Positions 516 through 30,413 of a DNA stretch of 32,507 nt are shown here, in pieces. Under the pieces are notes generated by a model, which ran no database searches, was not told the DNA's origin, and saw only the letters and a list, made by a program, of their open reading frames with translations. The DNA is from Patescibacteria group bacterium (lineage in GTDB: Bacteria; Patescibacteriota; Minisyncoccia; JAHISW01; Tagabacteraceae), in assembly GCA_018819015.1 (NCBI GenBank), contig JAHJQY010000011.1, positions 1 to 32,507 on the forward strand. The letters are read 5' to 3'. Position numbers and translations under genes: made by a program. The number at the start of each line of letters is the position of its first letter. Position 1 is the stretch's first letter.

Positions 516-737
516 ATGCAAAAACCATATTACGAAAAACCGAAATTCAAACTATACCAAGCAGATTGCTTGAATATTCTTGCTGAACTTCCCGAAAATT
601 CGGTTGATATGGTTTTTGCCGATCCGCCCTATCTTCTTTCAAATGGTGGGTTTACTGTTCACGCTGGACGGCGCGTTAGTGTCAACAAAGGCGAATGGGA
701 TAAAAGCAACGGATTAAAATATGAAGTTATCATTTGA
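516..737 (+). pseudogene. Truncated beta-class adenine DNA methyltransferase (DpnA/M.DpnIIB-like), N-terminal ~68 aa only
   Basis: SVDMVFADPPYLLSNGGFTVHAG...VSVNKGEWD is the DpnA-type motif IV region. The SAM-binding FxGxG motif is missing and the frame runs into the next gene's start. Confidence 0.85.
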
Positions 738-1554
738 AACACAACTTGCGGATAATTATACAAGCCAATCTCAAAAGGTGCGTGTTTTAACCGAGGCGTG
801 GGTCGATAGTGCCATTTATTGCCCTAATTGTGGGCATTTGGATATCGATAAATATCCAAACAATCAGCCGGTTGCAGATTTTTATTGCTCAAATTGTAAA
901 GAAGAATACGAGCTAAAAAGTAAGCAAGCAAGTGTTGGTGCAAAAATTGTAGATGGTGCGTACCGGACAATGATTGAACGATTGCAAGGCAGTAATAATC
1001 CCAACTTTTTTCTACTTAACTACGATTTACAAAGTTTTGAGTCTGAATTTACTACAAAAAGAGACAAAAAAGGCGTTCCAATTGGTAATCTAACTTCTCA
1101 AATTCTGGTTAACATTTATATGAATGAAATGGATCAATTTATAAAACAGAAATTGAAAGCAATAAATTATATCCGTTATGCTGATGATTTTATTGTTGTT
1201 CATTATGATACAAATTATTTGGCTGATTTATTGCTTAAAATTGAGGTTTTTCTCAAGAAAGAACTTAAAATTCGTTTACACCCGGGTAAAGTAACTATTC
1301 GTAAATATTGCCAGGGAGTCGACTATTTAGGATATGTTATTTTGCCTAAAGCAATTATATTAAGAACTAAAACCAAGCAAAGGATTTTTAGGAAGCTAAA
1401 ACAGAGAGTCAATGAATACAAAAAAGGTAAAATCGATGAGCATGCCTTAATGCAAACTTTTAATTCATATCTCGGGGTATTAAGTCACGCAAATAGCAAT
1501 AAACTTGAACAAGAAATACGACATAAGATGTGGGAGTGGCTTAAAGAAAATTGA
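721..1554 (+). CDS. In-frame chimera: DpnI/Dam-replacing endonuclease N-terminus (aa 1-107) fused to the C-terminal half of a DGR-type reverse transcriptase
   Basis: The N part has SQKVRVLTE, CPNCG, NNQPVADFYCSNCKEEYELKSK and DGAYRTMIERL (DpnI). The C part has GVPIGNLTSQ, YIRYADD, LHPGK, GVDYLGY and SYLGVLSHANS (RT motifs 4-7 and thumb). RT motifs 1-3 are absent. Confidence 0.88.
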   Translation: MKLSFETQLADNYTSQSQKVRVLTEAWVDSAIYCPNCGHLDIDKYPNNQPVADFYCSNCKEEYELKSKQASVGAKIVDGAYRTMIERLQGSNNPNFFLLNYDLQSFESEFTTKRDKKGVPIGNLTSQILVNIYMNEMDQFIKQKLKAINYIRYADDFIVVHYDTNYLADLLLKIEVFLKKELKIRLHPGKVTIRKYCQGVDYLGYVILPKAIILRTKTKQRIFRKLKQRVNEYKKGKIDEHALMQTFNSYLGVLSHANSNKLEQEIRHKMWEWLKEN

Positions 1555-1704
1555 AATAAAAAAGGGACAGCCGAGACCTGCTGCCCACATTGACTGAAAC
1601 CCCAAAGGGCTCCAATTGTGGAGGACCGGCTGCCCCTTTCAGTCCACAATTGGACTAAAAAGACAGCGGCCCGTTGGGGGTATTCCCAGTCAATGTAGGC
1701 AGCA
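1555..1704 (-). ncRNA. Candidate structured ncRNA of unknown family
   Basis: Nested stems at 1579-1596/1687-1704, 1600-1610/1669-1679 and 1611-1622/1643-1654, plus a loop-to-tail pairing 1627-1639/1561-1573. Most non-Watson-Crick positions are G.U on the minus strand. A TATACT box lies at 1710-1715 and a U-tract at the 3' end. Confidence 0.6.
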
Positions 1705-1749
1705 CTTTTAGTATACTATAAAATCATATAAAAATAAAGAAATAAAGAA

Positions 1750-1773: not shown

Positions 1774-1808
1774 CTTTGATTGCACCTTAGTGCAAAAAAT
1801 TGTAGCGA

Positions 1809-1821
1809 CCGCCTTCGGCGG
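1809..1821 (-). other. GC hairpin with GAA triloop downstream of the putative DGR target (possible retrohoming hairpin)
   Basis: CCGCC-GAA-GGCGG on the minus strand, about 42 nt after the stop codon. Confidence 0.45.
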
Positions 1822-1863
1822 AAACAAAGAACAAGAAACCGAAAGGTCCGAAGTGCCGAGAAC

Positions 1864-21377: not shown

Positions 21378-21562
21378 GTTGCGGTCTCCTTTCAAAATTA
21401 AGGTTAAGGCGTGATATCGATTCTTAAACAAGAATACTATAAAATAAATAAAAGTCAATAGCGTGGGGTAATCTACGCATATTGACTAGAAAATAGAGGG
21501 CGAGGTATGCTTAAGAAAGATTTTGAAAATATTACGAACAAAAACATAGAAAGAGGGGTTTC

Positions 21563-22012
21563 GTGGGAAATAAGATTAAAAAAATTCTGCAAGCACACAA
21601 TATTTTACACCAAAGAAGCAAAGAAGTTCTTGCAAGTATTGTTAAAAATAAATGGATTGAATCTTTTGTTTTTACTCCAAGGCACGGGGAATTGGATATT
21701 CATGGCATTGATTTAACTTGGTCTTTTAGGCCGGGGCCAAACGGAGAGGTTGGAATTTCCTGCGCGCAAGAAAAAACCAGAGTTAAAGATATAAAAGTTC
21801 ATTTTAAAAAATATCCATGCATGCCGCTTTATCTTTTGCGGCCCGGTGACAGCAAAGAACAAATTGAGTATGCGTATATAACACTGATTTTAGCTTGCAA
21901 TTCGTATAATGCGGCAGAAAAATTAGCAATTGAAAAAAGGAAAAATCAATTGAGGGGAAAAGTCAGAAAAAAAGAAAGGAGAGTTTGGTTAAATTGGCTT
22001 GATTTTAAATAA
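21563..22012 (+). CDS. Hypothetical basic protein, possibly with a restriction-endonuclease-like fold
   Basis: ELDIHGIDL...AQEK resembles D-xx-GID...QxK. SD-like AGAGGGG before GTG, and a terminator follows. Confidence 0.5.
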   Translation: MGNKIKKILQAHNILHQRSKEVLASIVKNKWIESFVFTPRHGELDIHGIDLTWSFRPGPNGEVGISCAQEKTRVKDIKVHFKKYPCMPLYLLRPGDSKEQIEYAYITLILACNSYNAAEKLAIEKRKNQLRGKVRKKERRVWLNWLDFK

Positions 22013-22020
22013 AAAATAAT

Positions 22021-22055
22021 AAAAGGGTCTGTCATTTGACAAGGGCCCTTTTTTT
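22021..22055 (+). terminator. Rho-independent terminator
   Basis: AAAAGGGTC-TGTC-ATTT-GACA-AG-GGCCCTTTTTTT. Confidence 0.65.
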
Positions 22056-22120
22056 GTTTAAATTAATAGTAATTAAAAGTTCATAATTATTAGCAGTTTT
22101 TAAAAAATTATTTTATAGAT

Positions 22121-22432
22121 ATGGCTAAAAAATTTGATGTTATTCCTCTTGGCGACAGGGTTTTGATTGAACCATTGTCTCAGGAGGATAGAATGAAAAA
22201 GACAAAATTCGGAATCGTTATTCCGGAGACCGTGGACAAGGAAAAAGTTGATCGCGGGACGGTGTTAGCTGTCGGCCCCGGCCGGATAACCGAAGAGGGC
22301 AAGAAAATTCCGGTTTCGGTTAAAAAAGGTCAAATAGTTATTTTTTCCGAATTTAGTTCTGACAAGATTAAGGTCGACGACAAAGAATATTATATTGTCA
22401 GCGAGAATAACATTCTCGCGGTAATTGGCTAA
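22121..22432 (+). CDS. groES: Co-chaperonin GroES
   Basis: PLGDRVLIE, GIVIPET, AVGPG and ILAVI motifs. Confidence 0.97.
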   Translation: MAKKFDVIPLGDRVLIEPLSQEDRMKKTKFGIVIPETVDKEKVDRGTVLAVGPGRITEEGKKIPVSVKKGQIVIFSEFSSDKIKVDDKEYYIVSENNILAVIG

Positions 22433-24669
<2,237 letters not shown>

Positions 24670-26687: not shown

Positions 26688-29600
26688 ATGATAGATAAAT
26701 TTTCTCAAATAAAAATCCCGAAAAAAATTAAAAAACGGGATGGAAGAATTGTTGATTTTGAAAAAGGCCGCGTTGTGGAAGCGGTTTTTAAGGCCTTTGA
26801 AGCCAGCGGCCAGCCGGACCGCGCATTGGCAGAAGATGTCGCGCAAATCACTTTCGGTAAATTAAGCCAGAAATACCTGCCTCGCGGCAAGGCGGGCAAA
26901 AAAAATATTTCCAAAGCAATTCCTTTCATTGAAGAACTTCAGGATATTGTGGAAGAGTCTCTGGTTGAAAAAGGATTTGCCAAAGTTGCCAAGTCTTACA
27001 TTCTTTACCGGCAAAAAAGGGCGGAATTAAGGCGCGAAAAGCAGGAAATTCTGGAAAAAACCGAGATAGATGAAATTGACAAAATGTTTGATTCTAACGC
27101 TTTGCGGGTTTTGAAAAGCCGTTATTTGCGAAAAAACACAAACGGTAAAATAATAGAATCGCCTAAACAACTTTTTCAAAGAGTCGCTATCCATATTGTT
27201 TTGGCAGAAATTGTTCACGATAAGCGCGTTTCGTTAAGGCGTGGAAAGGAAAAAACAGGCGAAGAGGGAATTTTGGAAAACGAGAAGGCCATAGCCCTGG
27301 AAAATTGTTTAAGGATAGGCGGTTATTTCTTGAATCGTTTTCATGTAAAAGGGCTTTATCATTTTTTTAGCCGTTTTGAAAAAGAAGGAAGAACAAAAAT
27401 TAGCTGGGAGGACTTGGTTCGCTTGCTGAAAAATAATCAATTTAGTTCATATCAGAAAAAAATAGACGAATTTTACGAACTTATGGTTTCCCGGGATTTT
27501 ATGCCCAACACGCCGGCTTTGGCTAACTTCGGCAGTTATTTAGGCATGGGGTCTGCTTGTTTTGCTTTGGATATCGGCGATTCCATAGATTCCATAATGG
27601 AAACACTGAAAAGAGCTTCTATTATTTTCAAATCTGGCGGAGGGTTGGGGTATAATTTTTCCAAATTGAGGCCGGAGGGGGATTTTATAAAAACTACCGG
27701 CGGCACATCTTCCGGCCCTTTAAGTTTTATGCGGCTTTTTGACACAATGACCAACGTTGTTAAGCAAGGCGGAATCAGGCGAGGCGCGAATATGGGTATT
27801 ATGAATTCTAATCATCCCGATATAGAAAAGTTTGTGGTTGCCAAGGAGGGCAATGAAGCGCTGACGAATTTTAATATTTCAGTTTTGATAATGCCTGATT
27901 TTTGGGATTGTTATAAAAAAGATAAGCCATATCCGCTGGAAAATCCCAGAACCGGCGAAATTCAGCGTCAAGTTTCTCCAAAAGTTCTTTTTGAAAATAT
28001 AGTTTATCATGCTTGGGAGTCGGCCGAACCGGGAGTGCTTTTTTATGAAAAAATCAATGAGTTTAATCCTTTGTTGAAAGAATTGGGTCCGATTGTGACG
28101 ACTAATCCATGCGTGCCTGACAATACTTGGGTAATGACTTCCAGTGGGCCCCGGCAAGTTAAAGAATTAATCGGTCAAAAAACAGAAGTGGTGGTTGGCG
28201 GCAAAAAATGGTCCAACCGCGGACAGGGCTTTTTTCACACCGGCGACAAACGTCTTTTGAATTTAAAAACAAAAGAGGGGTTTTCAATGTCTTTGACCGG
28301 CAATCATTTGGTGAGAAAAGTAAAAAAACTTACAAGATACGCGATGGATTGTGAGTGGTTGCCGGCGGTTGAGTTAAAAATTGGCGACAAAGTGGCGCTT
28401 AATTTTAATGAAAATTTTTCCTGGGGAGGTCAATATGGAGGAAAAGAAGGATATTTGTTGGGGCACCTTGTGGGCGATGGTGTAATTTGGCGGGGCAAAG
28501 CATTTTTGGAAAGTTGGGGGGAAAGCAAGGGGGAGAAAAAAGTCCGGACAAAAATTGAAGACTCGGTAAAATCTTTTCCTCACAGAGTCGATTTTAAGGG
28601 TTGGGTTTTTAATAAATCGGGAGATAAATATCGGATAACTTCGGCCGCTTTTTCAAAATTGGTAGAAGATTTTGATATTTCAAATAAAAAAATAATAACG
28701 CCGTTTGTTGAGCGGGAGTCTTCAGATTTTTATAAAGGATTTTTAAGGGGATTTTTTGACACCGATGGCTCTGTTCAAGGCAGTCAATTAAAGGGTGTGA
28801 GTGTTCGTTTGGCGCAAAGCGATATAGAACGGCTGGAAGCTGTTCAGAGAATGCTTTTGCGGCTCGGAATATTTTCAAAGATTTATACAAATAGAAGGCC
28901 GGCCGGGTTTCGCAAGATGCCGGATGGCCATGGCGGCCTTAAATCGTATTTTACGAAAGCCAATCATGAATTGGTAATTAGCGGAGAAAATCTTGAGAGG
29001 TTTTATAAAAGAGTGGGTTTTGAAAATTTAGATAAATCGGAAAAACTTGAAAAACTTTTGAAAAAATACAGGCGGATGTTAAACAAGGAAAGATTTTTTG
29101 CCACCGTGTCCGAAATAGTAAAATCCGAAATAAAAAAAGTGTATGATATTCAAATTCCCGGAATTAACGCTTTTGATGCCAATGGTTTTTATGTTCACAA
29201 TTGTGGTGAATTATTGTTGTACCCAAATGAATCATGCAATTTGGGTTCTATCAATCTTTGGAATTTTGTAAAAATTTGCGAAGATGAAAAAAAAGATATT
29301 GATTGGGAAAAGCTGGAAAAGACCGTGCGGCTGGCAGTTCGGTTTTTGGATAATATTATAGATGTTAATCATTTGCCCCTAGTTGAGATAGAAGATATGA
29401 CTTTTAAAACAAGAAAAATAGGACTTGGCGTTATGGGGTTAGGCGATTTGTTTTTTGAGCTTGAATTACCTTACAATTCTCCGGCGGGGCGTGATTTGAT
29501 GGAAAAAATCGCGGAATTTATAAATTACCATTCTAAGCTGGAATCTGTGAAACTGGCCCGGGAAAAAGGAGCTTTCCCGTTGTTTAAAAAGAGTTTTTAC

Positions 29601-30413
29601 GCGGAAGGAAAACTGCCCTTTGCCGGTTTTTATGACAAAAAATCATGGAATTTTGACTGGAAAGAAGTCGCGGATAAAATAAAGAAATATGGTATTAGAA
29701 ATAGTTACACCACCGTTATCGCGCCGACCGGCTCCACATCAATGATTGCAGGATGTTCTTCCGGCATTGAACCGGTTTATTCTCTGGTTTATCAGAAAAA
29801 TGTCGCCGTTGGTTCGTTTTACTATATTGACGCGGTTTTTGAACAGGCCATGCTTCGCGAGGGGTTGTTTGATGAAAATTTAATAACGGACGTTGTTATG
29901 GCCAAAGGGTCGGTTCAGGAGATAAACTATATACCGCCGCGGCTTAAAAAATTTTTTGTGACCAGCCATGATATAAAACCGGAAGACCATATAAAAACTT
30001 TGGCTAGTTTTCAGAAATGGGTGGATTCTTCAATTTCAAAGACGATCAATTTTCCAAAAGAAGCCACGGTGGGGGATATGAAAAAAGCCTATCTTTTGGC
30101 GCATGAGCTGGGCTGCAAGGGAGTGACGGTTTACCGAGATACTTCCATCAAGGGCCAGGTTTTGAACACGGCTTCGGAAAAATCTAAGAGAGCCGACAGG
30201 GGCGACGGGCTTCAAAGAATAAAAGACGAAAAGGCGGAAGGCCTGGTTGTTTATCGCGACGCCTCCACGGTTTATCTGAATGGAAATGGCGGCGAATCCG
30301 CGACGGATTTCAGCGGCAATAAGGCCGCCAAATGCCCGAATTGCAAAATAGAAGTTTCTTTTAAGGAAGGGTGCGCGTCTTGTCCTGTTTGCGGCTGGGG
30401 GCTTTGCGCTTAG
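26688..30413 (+). CDS. nrdJ: Class II (adenosylcobalamin-dependent) ribonucleotide reductase with ATP-cone, intein and C-terminal Zn ribbon
   Basis: IKKRDGRIVDF ATP-cone, FMPNTP, SACF, QGGIRRGANM, NP/CGE, ESCNLGS, IAPTG, SISKTIN, GCKGVTVYRD and EGCASCPVCGW. No nrdB is adjacent. Confidence 0.9.
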   Translation: MIDKFSQIKIPKKIKKRDGRIVDFEKGRVVEAVFKAFEASGQPDRALAEDVAQITFGKLSQKYLPRGKAGKKNISKAIPFIEELQDIVEESLVEKGFAKVAKSYILYRQKRAELRREKQEILEKTEIDEIDKMFDSNALRVLKSRYLRKNTNGKIIESPKQLFQRVAIHIVLAEIVHDKRVSLRRGKEKTGEEGILENEKAIALENCLRIGGYFLNRFHVKGLYHFFSRFEKEGRTKISWEDLVRLLKNNQFSSYQKKIDEFYELMVSRDFMPNTPALANFGSYLGMGSACFALDIGDSIDSIMETLKRASIIFKSGGGLGYNFSKLRPEGDFIKTTGGTSSGPLSFMRLFDTMTNVVKQGGIRRGANMGIMNSNHPDIEKFVVAKEGNEALTNFNISVLIMPDFWDCYKKDKPYPLENPRTGEIQRQVSPKVLFENIVYHAWESAEPGVLFYEKINEFNPLLKELGPIVTTNPCVPDNTWVMTSSGPRQVKELIGQKTEVVVGGKKWSNRGQGFFHTGDKRLLNLKTKEGFSMSLTGNHLVRKVKKLTRYAMDCEWLPAVELKIGDKVALNFNENFSWGGQYGGKEGYLLGHLVGDGVIWRGKAFLESWGESKGEKKVRTKIEDSVKSFPHRVDFKGWVFNKSGDKYRITSAAFSKLVEDFDISNKKIITPFVERESSDFYKGFLRGFFDTDGSVQGSQLKGVSVRLAQSDIERLEAVQRMLLRLGIFSKIYTNRRPAGFRKMPDGHGGLKSYFTKANHELVISGENLERFYKRVGFENLDKSEKLEKLLKKYRRMLNKERFFATVSEIVKSEIKKVYDIQIPGINAFDANGFYVHNCGELLLYPNESCNLGSINLWNFVKICEDEKKDIDWEKLEKTVRLAVRFLDNIIDVNHLPLVEIEDMTFKTRKIGLGVMGLGDLFFELELPYNSPAGRDLMEKIAEFINYHSKLESVKLAREKGAFPLFKKSFYAEGKLPFAGFYDKKSWNFDWKEVADKIKKYGIRNSYTTVIAPTGSTSMIAGCSSGIEPVYSLVYQKNVAVGSFYYIDAVFEQAMLREGLFDENLITDVVMAKGSVQEINYIPPRLKKFFVTSHDIKPEDHIKTLASFQKWVDSSISKTINFPKEATVGDMKKAYLLAHELGCKGVTVYRDTSIKGQVLNTASEKSKRADRGDGLQRIKDEKAEGLVVYRDASTVYLNGNGGESATDFSGNKAAKCPNCKIEVSFKEGCASCPVCGWGLCA
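28110..29201 (+). mobile_element. 364-aa intein with LAGLIDADG homing endonuclease
   Basis: TTNP|CVPDNTWV...TGNH...YLLGHLVGDG...FLRGFFDTDG...VYDIQI...FYVHN|CGE. Confidence 0.95.

Follow-up and report, generated by a model that had tools for sequence, protein, structure and literature searches.

A candidate small RNA gene family carried by phages and integrating elements of Patescibacteria

Results

A predicted RNA gene next to a DUF5701 gene

The stretch of DNA that we analyzed (the window) is an entire 32.5-kb contig (32,507 nucleotides) of a bacterial genome of 552 kb that is 98% complete. The window encodes RecA, FtsK, ribosomal protein S6, GroEL, and RNase J, which are bacterial genes. 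It also encodes the large subunit of ribonucleotide reductase (26688–30413, plus strand; 1241 amino acids), with an intein that includes a LAGLIDADG homing-endonuclease domain. Near the start of the contig is a DUF5701 gene on the minus strand (1864–2586), followed on the same strand by its intrinsic-terminator-like hairpin (1775–1748) and, directly after that, by the promoter region of a predicted RNA gene of about 150 nt (1557–1707, minus strand). The open reading frame at 721–1554, on the plus strand, runs towards the RNA.

On the minus strand, 1557–1707 has a minimum free energy of -80.2 kcal/mol (z = -7.35), and none of 200 shuffled sequences equaled it. The plus strand of the same stretch folds less stably (-65.5 kcal/mol; z = -5.36), which is consistent with G.U pairs that are confined to the minus strand. 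Both the stand-alone structured RNA and the one-sided G.U pairs had been proposed in an initial annotation made from the sequence of the window, and every stem that it listed is present. An 18-nt inverted repeat (1579–1596 and 1687–1704; 94% complementarity) extends to a closing stem of 21 bp, P1, with three G.U pairs (1704–1684 with 1599–1579). Stem P2 has 6 and 4 bp on either side of a 1x1 mismatch (1679–1669 with 1610–1600), and stem P3 is a perfect helix of 12 bp (1654–1643 with 1622–1611). The 3' strand of P3 lies inside the motif CCUCCACAA, which is invariant in the family described below, and the outer bases of its 5' strand can close a small hairpin, P3a, instead.

Three segments, which we call A, B, and C, can form other helices. 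Segment A (1668–1655) is pyrimidine-rich and is complementary to segment B (GAAAGGGGCAGCCG; 1640–1627), which lies in the loop of P3. Segment C (CGGCUGUCCCUUUU) and the U-run form the terminator tail (1573–1558). In the window, AAAGGGGCAGCCG (within 1640–1627) pairs with CGGCUGUCCCUUU (within 1573–1560) over 13 bp, one of them G.U, and the U-run follows directly; this is the loop-to-tail pseudoknot of the initial annotation. Segments B and C are the 5' and 3' halves of this loop-to-tail helix (B:C). The sequence GGGCAGC in the 3' strand of P1 could also pair locally with the tail, and this site was flagged by a scan for terminators. The RNA is single-copy in the window's genome. A covariance model of the family scores the window copy at 190.5 bits and its reverse strand at 34.4 bits.

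The window copy lies in the remnant of a DGR

The open reading frame at 721–1554 is chimeric. Its residues 1–107 are similar to DpnI, and residues 109–207 are similar to the C-terminal half of RVT_1. The RT part (1031–1554, plus strand) is fused in frame to the DpnI fragment and contains YADD and IGNLTSQ; the latter fits IGxxxSQ, which we take to be the hallmark motif of a DGR-type RT. More broadly, 516–1554 (plus strand) is a run of gene fragments, and the junction between DpnI and RT, at about 1031–1045, is where homology to intact DGRs begins. Just upstream of the chimeric reading frame, and overlapping it, is a fragment of 73 residues that looks like the N terminus of a DNA methylase, with a DPPY motif; Pfam gives no match for this fragment.

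Intact relatives show what the cassette used to look like. One such genome (G164) has a full-length RT with a 120-nt template repeat immediately upstream, and this repeat is matched by the variable regions at the ends of two DUF5701 genes; a second genome (G167) has the same layout. The variable region of the window's DUF5701 gene (about 1872–1995) is 80–88% identical to the template repeats of these relatives, so the suggestion that this gene is the target of a DGR held up. Homology to the relatives' cassettes is confined to 1031–2616, and a search of the window and of the whole genome for a template repeat found none. Because the homology is truncated and the genome has no template repeat, this is a 1.6-kb DGR remnant that comprises half of the RT, the RNA, and the target gene. 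The DGR in the window is dead, with its template and half of its RT lost, and the RNA copy is a still-intact orphan whose downstream module is gone. In another genome (G007), a 3.7-kb DGR locus has no template repeat either, and the sole repeat in the larger stretch of that genome (L030) lies outside the target gene.

Two further observations concern the DUF5701 genes. In the window (1796–1863, minus strand) and at three other loci (L009, L010, and L011), a G+C-rich stretch of the ACUUCGGAC type lies within the 40–70 nt that follow the DUF5701 stop codon, and in L010 and L011 it is preceded by a CCUGCC...GGCAGG palindrome. This stretch is separate from the RNA and is located where the target-recognition elements of DGRs are expected. 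The window's genome also encodes a second DUF5701 paralog (38% identity) on another contig (G000:C29, about 21550–23080; L012 652–2181). It adjoins a gene for an IS200-like Y1 transposase (a weak match) and has a plain terminator, without an RNA of this family.

A family with at least 90 loci

When 151 genomes of the class were searched with a first covariance model, made from two copies, 4 proved to carry the RNA. It is absent from 7 genomes of the window's own family. So few carriers within the class point to an RNA of mobile elements rather than one with a housekeeping role. A BLASTN search of 401 genomes of the class gave matches at E ≤ 0.01 in 15 of them: the window's own genome, nine with matches that cover about 95 nt or more, and five with matches of 21–24 nt. 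One of the nine longer matches is 93% identical and comes from a different family.

A search with a motif pattern identified 30 loci in a collection of species-representative genomes (185,579 species), at least 80 loci in metagenomes, and one locus in viral contigs. All but two of the titles of the 30 species-representative loci name Patescibacteria, Paceibacterota, Parcubacteria-type groups, or “uncultured Candidatus Saccharibacteria.” Once duplicates were removed, there were at least 85 distinct sequences and at least 90 distinct loci from Paceibacteria-type genomes, metagenomes, and one tailed-phage contig. The shares of genomic contexts that we report below are biased because the family was gathered by motif pattern and because the 80 metagenome loci are a lower bound. 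Judging from these sequences, the structured RNA is an undescribed gene family that is carried by phages and integrating elements of Patescibacteria. A full-text literature search found no description of the RNA.

The structure covaries

In our initial alignment, made with MAFFT, P1 and P2 were out of register in some rows, and all that RNAalifold found in it was a small hairpin, B:C, and a CUCCAC:GUGGG pairing. It was replaced by model-guided alignments, first of 31 and then of 78 distinct sequences. Across the 78 homologs, 95.4% of the cells pair, as compared to 79.5% in shuffles and 39–50% if the partners are slid, and 34 of the 56 pairs change on both sides. The pairing against these controls, together with the two-sided changes, indicates a structure beyond chance. 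The two-sided changes include all 10 pairs of P2, 15 of the 21 pairs of P1, 4 of the 11 pairs of P3 (which has a C.A mismatch in 62 of the 78 rows), and 5 of the 14 pairs of B:C. The B:C helix is 12–14 bp long, is 98.7% paired, and runs into the U-run in all 78 rows. As B:C was outside the model that was used for the alignment, the alignment gives it no advantage.

Most relatives have another small hairpin, Pa, between P2 and P3, which we read by eye and which is formed by segment A. An example is GCUUC-UUUU-GAAGC, and variants have GUCU/AGAC or GCC/GGC. Pa and P3 beside P2 make a three-way junction, so that the consensus consists of P1, a one-sided bulge of 3–5 nt, P2, and the three-way junction. 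Overall, the covariation supports P1, P2, and P3 on a probable three-way junction as well as the predicted B:C helix. The invariant motifs that are single-stranded or partly paired are a GNRA-like GAAA, GGGGC, and CCUCCACAA, and the base of P1 (CCUACA/UGUGGG) is unusually conserved. G.U pairs are kept at positions where the opposite strand would carry A.C.

Promoter, terminator, and strand

In 32 loci that we examined, every copy ends in GUCCCUUUUU, and in the relatives a consensus sigma-70 promoter (a TTGACA-like box, about 17 nt, and a TATAAT-like box) ends 5–7 nt ahead of the conserved UGC that opens P1. The corresponding element in the window is a -10-like box, TATACT (1715–1710), which lies 2 nt ahead of the A-run that enters P1. 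The initial annotation had placed the start of the RNA just after this box and downstream of a terminator. Both features are present, and the relatives' promoters are at the same place; however, a simple promoter scan flagged no -35/-10 pair at the window's TATACT, where the -35 box is weak. The promoter and the U-run are found on one strand only, and this, with the conserved G.U pairs and the low score of the reverse strand (34 versus 190 bits), fixes the strand. These signals suggest that the RNA is its own transcription unit.

Two of four RNA or possibly-RNA runs gave one 227-nt contig each, from relatives of the window copy, and the other two gave nothing. These contigs cover 1510–1659 or 1559–1677, continue beyond the terminator, and could be DNA.

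About ten loci (for example, L042, L037, L052, L046, L047, L048, and L038) have a second motif 10–60 nt past the U-run, between the terminator and the next gene. It consists of TTGACTT, about 17–19 nt, and then CATGTTG or CATGTATG, and it is missing from the window copy. It could be a second promoter, one whose -10 box is unusual, or a site where a protein binds. Given a promoter-like motif after the terminator, the downstream genes of those loci may not need read-through.

Competing folds of the loop and the tail

The loop segment B has two potential partners within the RNA. The B:C duplex has an energy of -23.6 kcal/mol, with z < -2 in 81 of 81 sequences; the A:B duplex has a mean of -15.2 kcal/mol, with z < -2 in 56 of 81. 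Segment A tracks the changes in B weakly: the cognate pair beats the mean of the non-cognate pairs in 18 of 31 cases. Hairpin P3a has 5 pairs, of which 3 change on both sides, and is 87.3% paired (shuffles, 81.6%). The mutually exclusive hairpin described in the initial annotation, with its two small hairpins that have AUUG and CAAU loops, is the computed minimum-free-energy structure of the window copy. Across the family, this alternative fold has weaker but real support.

The tail has a choice as well. In 80 of 85 sequences it can form a local hairpin of 5–7 bp with the end of P1, abutting the U-run; this hairpin is within the expectation from composition (mean z of -1.1). When pseudoknots are excluded, the rod is favored over a nested fold with B:C in 30 of 31 sequences, in most cases by 10–20 kcal/mol. 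On geometric grounds, an intramolecular B:C helix alongside full-length P1, P2, and P3 looks sterically hard unless the rod bends sharply, and coexistence would need this bend at the bulge between P1 and P2. On bending, the tail would come next to the loop, since P2 and P3 together match the length of P1 (about 21 bp). As in an attenuator, a G+C-rich helix stands directly before the U-run, and a conserved alternative pairing, A:B, sequesters one strand of the terminator; covariation support is weaker for the latter.

Genomic contexts

We listed the contexts of 90 loci. In 40 of these, a large serine recombinase is encoded 0.15–5.9 kb downstream on the RNA's strand, often with a YceG-like gene or other cargo in between, and there is no RT within the covered flank. 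Another 22 are DGR loci, with a fixed order of DUF5701 target, RNA, and convergent RT; the stop codon of the RT is 4–10 nt from the end of the RNA or overlaps it. One of the DGR loci also has a recombinase 4.6 kb further on. Eight loci have neither a recombinase nor a DGR, and for the remaining 20, less than 2.5 kb of the downstream flank is covered. The co-occurrence with RT or DUF5701 genes that was initially proposed as a check is seen in the 22 DGR loci.

The typical upstream genes encode DUF5659, an HTH_36/DnaD-like protein, and a Toprim primase, and in some loci the RNA lies 68–104 nt after the primase gene. No gene is constantly adjacent to the RNA, and the downstream genes do not have a consistent function. 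What is shared is that the family lies at the border of a module: upstream is a replication-type module or a DGR target, and downstream, on the RNA's strand, is either cargo and a large serine recombinase or the antisense of an RT followed by avd. In the DGR loci, avd is about 1.0 kb downstream of the RNA, beyond the antisense of the RT, and in L056 the start codons of RT and avd overlap. In L056 (352–1928), L029 (5828–7410), and L028 (8039–9639), the template repeat and the RT are on one strand and avd lies between them on the other, so the spacer from template repeat to RT is antisense avd; the starts of RT and avd overlap in these DGRs.

The one viral record with the RNA (G401) is 33.8 kb and is 92% complete according to CheckV. 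It encodes a large terminase, a portal or adaptor, a major head protein, tail fibres, and endolysins, and avd, RT, RNA, and DUF5701 are together at one end. A related DGR, in G007, has a gap of 137 nt with a homologous terminator hairpin and no RNA. On a tree of the 150-nt sequences, which is too weak to order events, the DGR context needs at least three changes and appears in at least two or three places. Given the range of contexts and the G007 DGR that does without the RNA, we view the RNA as cargo of phages and integrating elements that shares a slot with the DGR, and not as a component of the DGR.

Alternative explanations

The main rival, as we rank the explanations, is that the RNA is stable and acts in trans for the phage or element, either as an immunity-type antisense RNA similar to P4 CI or P1 c4 or as a component of a ribonucleoprotein. 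The paired 5' end and the 3' helix would then serve stability, and binding sites for a protein or a target would be formed by the conserved bases of the loop and by the conserved base of P1. A consensus promoter and a terminator of its own would suit such an RNA, as would the invariant motifs, the unusual conservation at the base of P1, and the preservation of the structure in 22 loci with a convergent gene next to the RNA. Also, A and C are both complementary to B, like seqA, seqB, and seqC of P4 (PMC4825925), and B, C, and A change together between lineages. However, both A and C are internal to the RNA, only scattered matches to the complement of B, with 2 mismatches, occur in the flanks of 29 loci, and no gene is constantly adjacent. 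The C4/P4 CI family is absent from the Rfam matches at E ≤ 10. We consider this explanation possible but rather unlikely.

The other explanations fare worse. Rfam at the gathering score finds just two tRNAs in the window, and at E ≤ 10, the region 1400–1900 has 12 weak matches that are no better than chance, most of them to the upstream terminator hairpin. The RNA has no Rfam match, and the initial annotation could not place it as a tRNA, SRP RNA, tmRNA, or riboswitch either. The proposal that it is a partner, primer, or template RNA of the neighboring RT, DGR-linked or retron-like, has the fixed layout of the 22 DGR loci in its favor, as well as the appearance of DGR-context RNAs in more than one part of the tree. 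Against it, the RNA is on the opposite strand from the RT and the template repeat, it does not resemble the variable region, and the true template repeats are upstream of the RT (L028 9518–9639 and L029 5828–5952). Nor is the RNA found in the G007 DGR, and 40 loci with a serine recombinase have no RT in the covered flank. As a template repeat, the RNA would need about 100 nt that resemble the variable region and differ mostly at adenines, which it lacks, and it is convergent with the RT in 22 of 22 DGR loci. A retron msr-msd RNA lies directly upstream of the RT on the same strand, with a1/a2 flanking repeats and a branching G. Here the RNA is downstream of the RT and on the opposite strand, the relatives of this RT come with Avd, template repeat, and variable region, and both the layout and the IGxxxSQ motif (presumably of the DGR type) speak against a retron. 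The motifs RT-1 to RT-19 (Weinberg et al. 2017, PMC5737381) are not among the matches at E ≤ 10 to Rfam 15, which may lack some of them. A role as RT partner or template, as first suggested, is very improbable.

We give almost no credence to the idea that this is one of the host's housekeeping RNAs, for instance a divergent 6S or SRP RNA. The Rfam models for small and large SRP RNA and for 6S RNA find nothing in the window's 98%-complete genome, and the small SRP model finds nothing at E ≤ 1 in five other near-complete carrier genomes of the class (G072, G079, G164, G167, and G214). These vacancies would leave room for such an RNA, as would its being single-copy, and GNRA-GGGGCAGCC faintly recalls the helix-8 motif of SRP RNA; alternatively, this lineage may have an SRP RNA that has diverged beyond the reach of the Rfam models. 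Yet just 4 of 151 genomes of the class, and 0 of 7 of the window's own family, have the RNA, and it occurs on a phage contig and beside integrases, so its distribution has already largely refuted a housekeeping role. There is no match to the bacterial SRP models (RF00169 and RF01854), including the helix-8 motif, or any SRP or 6S score at E ≤ 10. 6S RNA has the form of a rod whose large central bubble imitates an open promoter. The consensus has no two-sided central bubble, and RF00013 has no match at the gathering score, at E ≤ 10 within 1400–1900, or in the whole genome, which leaves the original suggestion of a 6S-like RNA unsupported.

Finally, the conserved element might act as DNA and not be an RNA gene at all, for instance as a single-strand initiation signal or origin beside primase genes, a recombination site, or simply a two-way terminator that separates convergent genes. 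The location just after a Toprim primase gene in some loci would fit this, G.T mismatches are generally tolerated in hairpins of single-stranded DNA, and in the window the plus strand has a rod followed by a short T-run. But a promoter at a fixed distance and a terminal U-run are present on one strand only, G.U is conserved where the other strand would be A.C, covariation extends to the long-range B:C helix, and the model gives the reverse strand a far lower score (34.4 versus 190.5 bits). There is little chance that this explanation is correct.

Discussion

A proposed role

Our preferred reading, which we hold to be probable by a modest degree, is that this is a small RNA gene of Paceibacteria-type phages and integrating elements, in which the loop-to-tail helix terminates the gene's own transcript and may act as a gate for read-through. 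With the promoter 5–7 nt ahead of P1 in the relatives, the 5' end of the transcript would be paired. The rod (P1, bulge, and P2) ends in the three-way junction with Pa and P3. The B:C helix, or the local hairpin of the tail with the end of P1, would stop RNA polymerase and yield a discrete, end-protected RNA of 150 nt. If segment A, which is made earlier, holds B instead, the tail would be free and some transcripts would run into the downstream module. The element could then be a promoter-plus-gate unit for the expression of an integrase, cargo, or avd. In DGR loci, read-through could conceivably reach avd because it is about 1 kb downstream on the RNA's strand. For termination by the tail and a read-through gate held by A, taken together, we put the chances at somewhat below even.

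A more specific version, which we think is quite unlikely, is that Patescibacteria phages use the RNA as a gated switch. Whether the loop grips the tail would depend on a protein, a ligand, or the concentration of the RNA itself, and transcription would accordingly stop or run on, antisense across the RT into avd or into the cargo and integrase genes. If this were true, it would amount to on/off control by an RNA of targeted hypermutation and integration. In a bolder variant, the loop-to-tail pairing would be intermolecular and would form dimers or rings, in the style of the prohead RNA of phi29.

The regulatory RNAs of Patescibacteria and their phages are almost wholly undescribed, and this family has at least 90 loci and unusually clear covariation. 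The design of the candidate terminator, with an apical loop and a 3' tail that span a long rod, is unusual, and the RNA is placed where DGR cassettes, cargo genes, and serine integrases plug into elements. If the gate model holds, it would give a handle on how phages time integration and hypermutation, and would add a compact unit of promoter, RNA, and terminator. For annotation, the lesson is that a structured stretch between a DGR target and an RT need not belong to the retroelement's RNA.

Comparison with known systems

In the 22 DGR loci, the RNA resembles the template RNA of a DGR in that it is inside the cassette. It differs in being on the opposite strand, in having no likeness to the template repeat or variable region, and in that the true template repeat is elsewhere and other loci have no DGR in the covered flank.

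In the prohead RNA (pRNA) of phi29, a long helix joins the 5' and 3' ends, there is a three-way junction, and bases of a loop pair with a complementary segment and co-vary. Our RNA is likewise phage-encoded, of similar size (120–170 nt), and has paired ends, a three-way junction, and a covarying loop pairing. In contrast to pRNA, its loop pairs with the 3' tail, over 12–14 bp, instead of with a second, 4-nt loop; there is no match in sequence or in Rfam; the carrier phage has a conventional large terminase; and many carriers have no packaging genes in the covered flanks.

In the ZTP, preQ1, and SAM-II riboswitches, a hairpin loop pairs with the 3' tail to form a pseudoknot. The loop-to-tail topology, and the choice between a terminator helix and an antiterminator pairing, are similar to those of riboswitches and attenuators. 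Unlike at riboswitches, the downstream genes have no consistent function, and no ligand pocket can be inferred. The RNA also has a closing stem of 21 bp near the predicted start of the transcript, and its loop-to-tail helix greatly exceeds in length those of known pseudoknot riboswitches.

Termination in P4 immunity comes about when a central segment base-pairs with complementary sequences that flank it on both sides (PMC4825925). P4 CI and P1 c4 resemble our RNA in having a central segment that is complementary to one upstream and one downstream segment of the same transcript, and in the link to termination; here, the three segments change together between lineages. The differences are that all three segments are within one unit of 150 nt, that no targets outside it were found among 29 loci, that there is no match in Rfam, that the hosts are Patescibacteria and not enterobacteria, and that no processing is known for the RNA.

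IsrK of Gifsy-1 is both a small RNA and a read-through mRNA (PMC4825925). Like our RNA, it belongs to a mobile element and is a short structured RNA with its own promoter, a Rho-independent terminator, and co-directional genes downstream (same source), and alternative structures are possible in our RNA too. The two have no relation in sequence or in Rfam. Another difference from IsrK is that the 5' half of our RNA's terminator is in the apical loop of a rod of about 45 bp, about 50 nt upstream, and read-through and trans action are putative for our RNA. The family described here is new, and it is of a known general kind: a small RNA of mobile elements or an attenuator.
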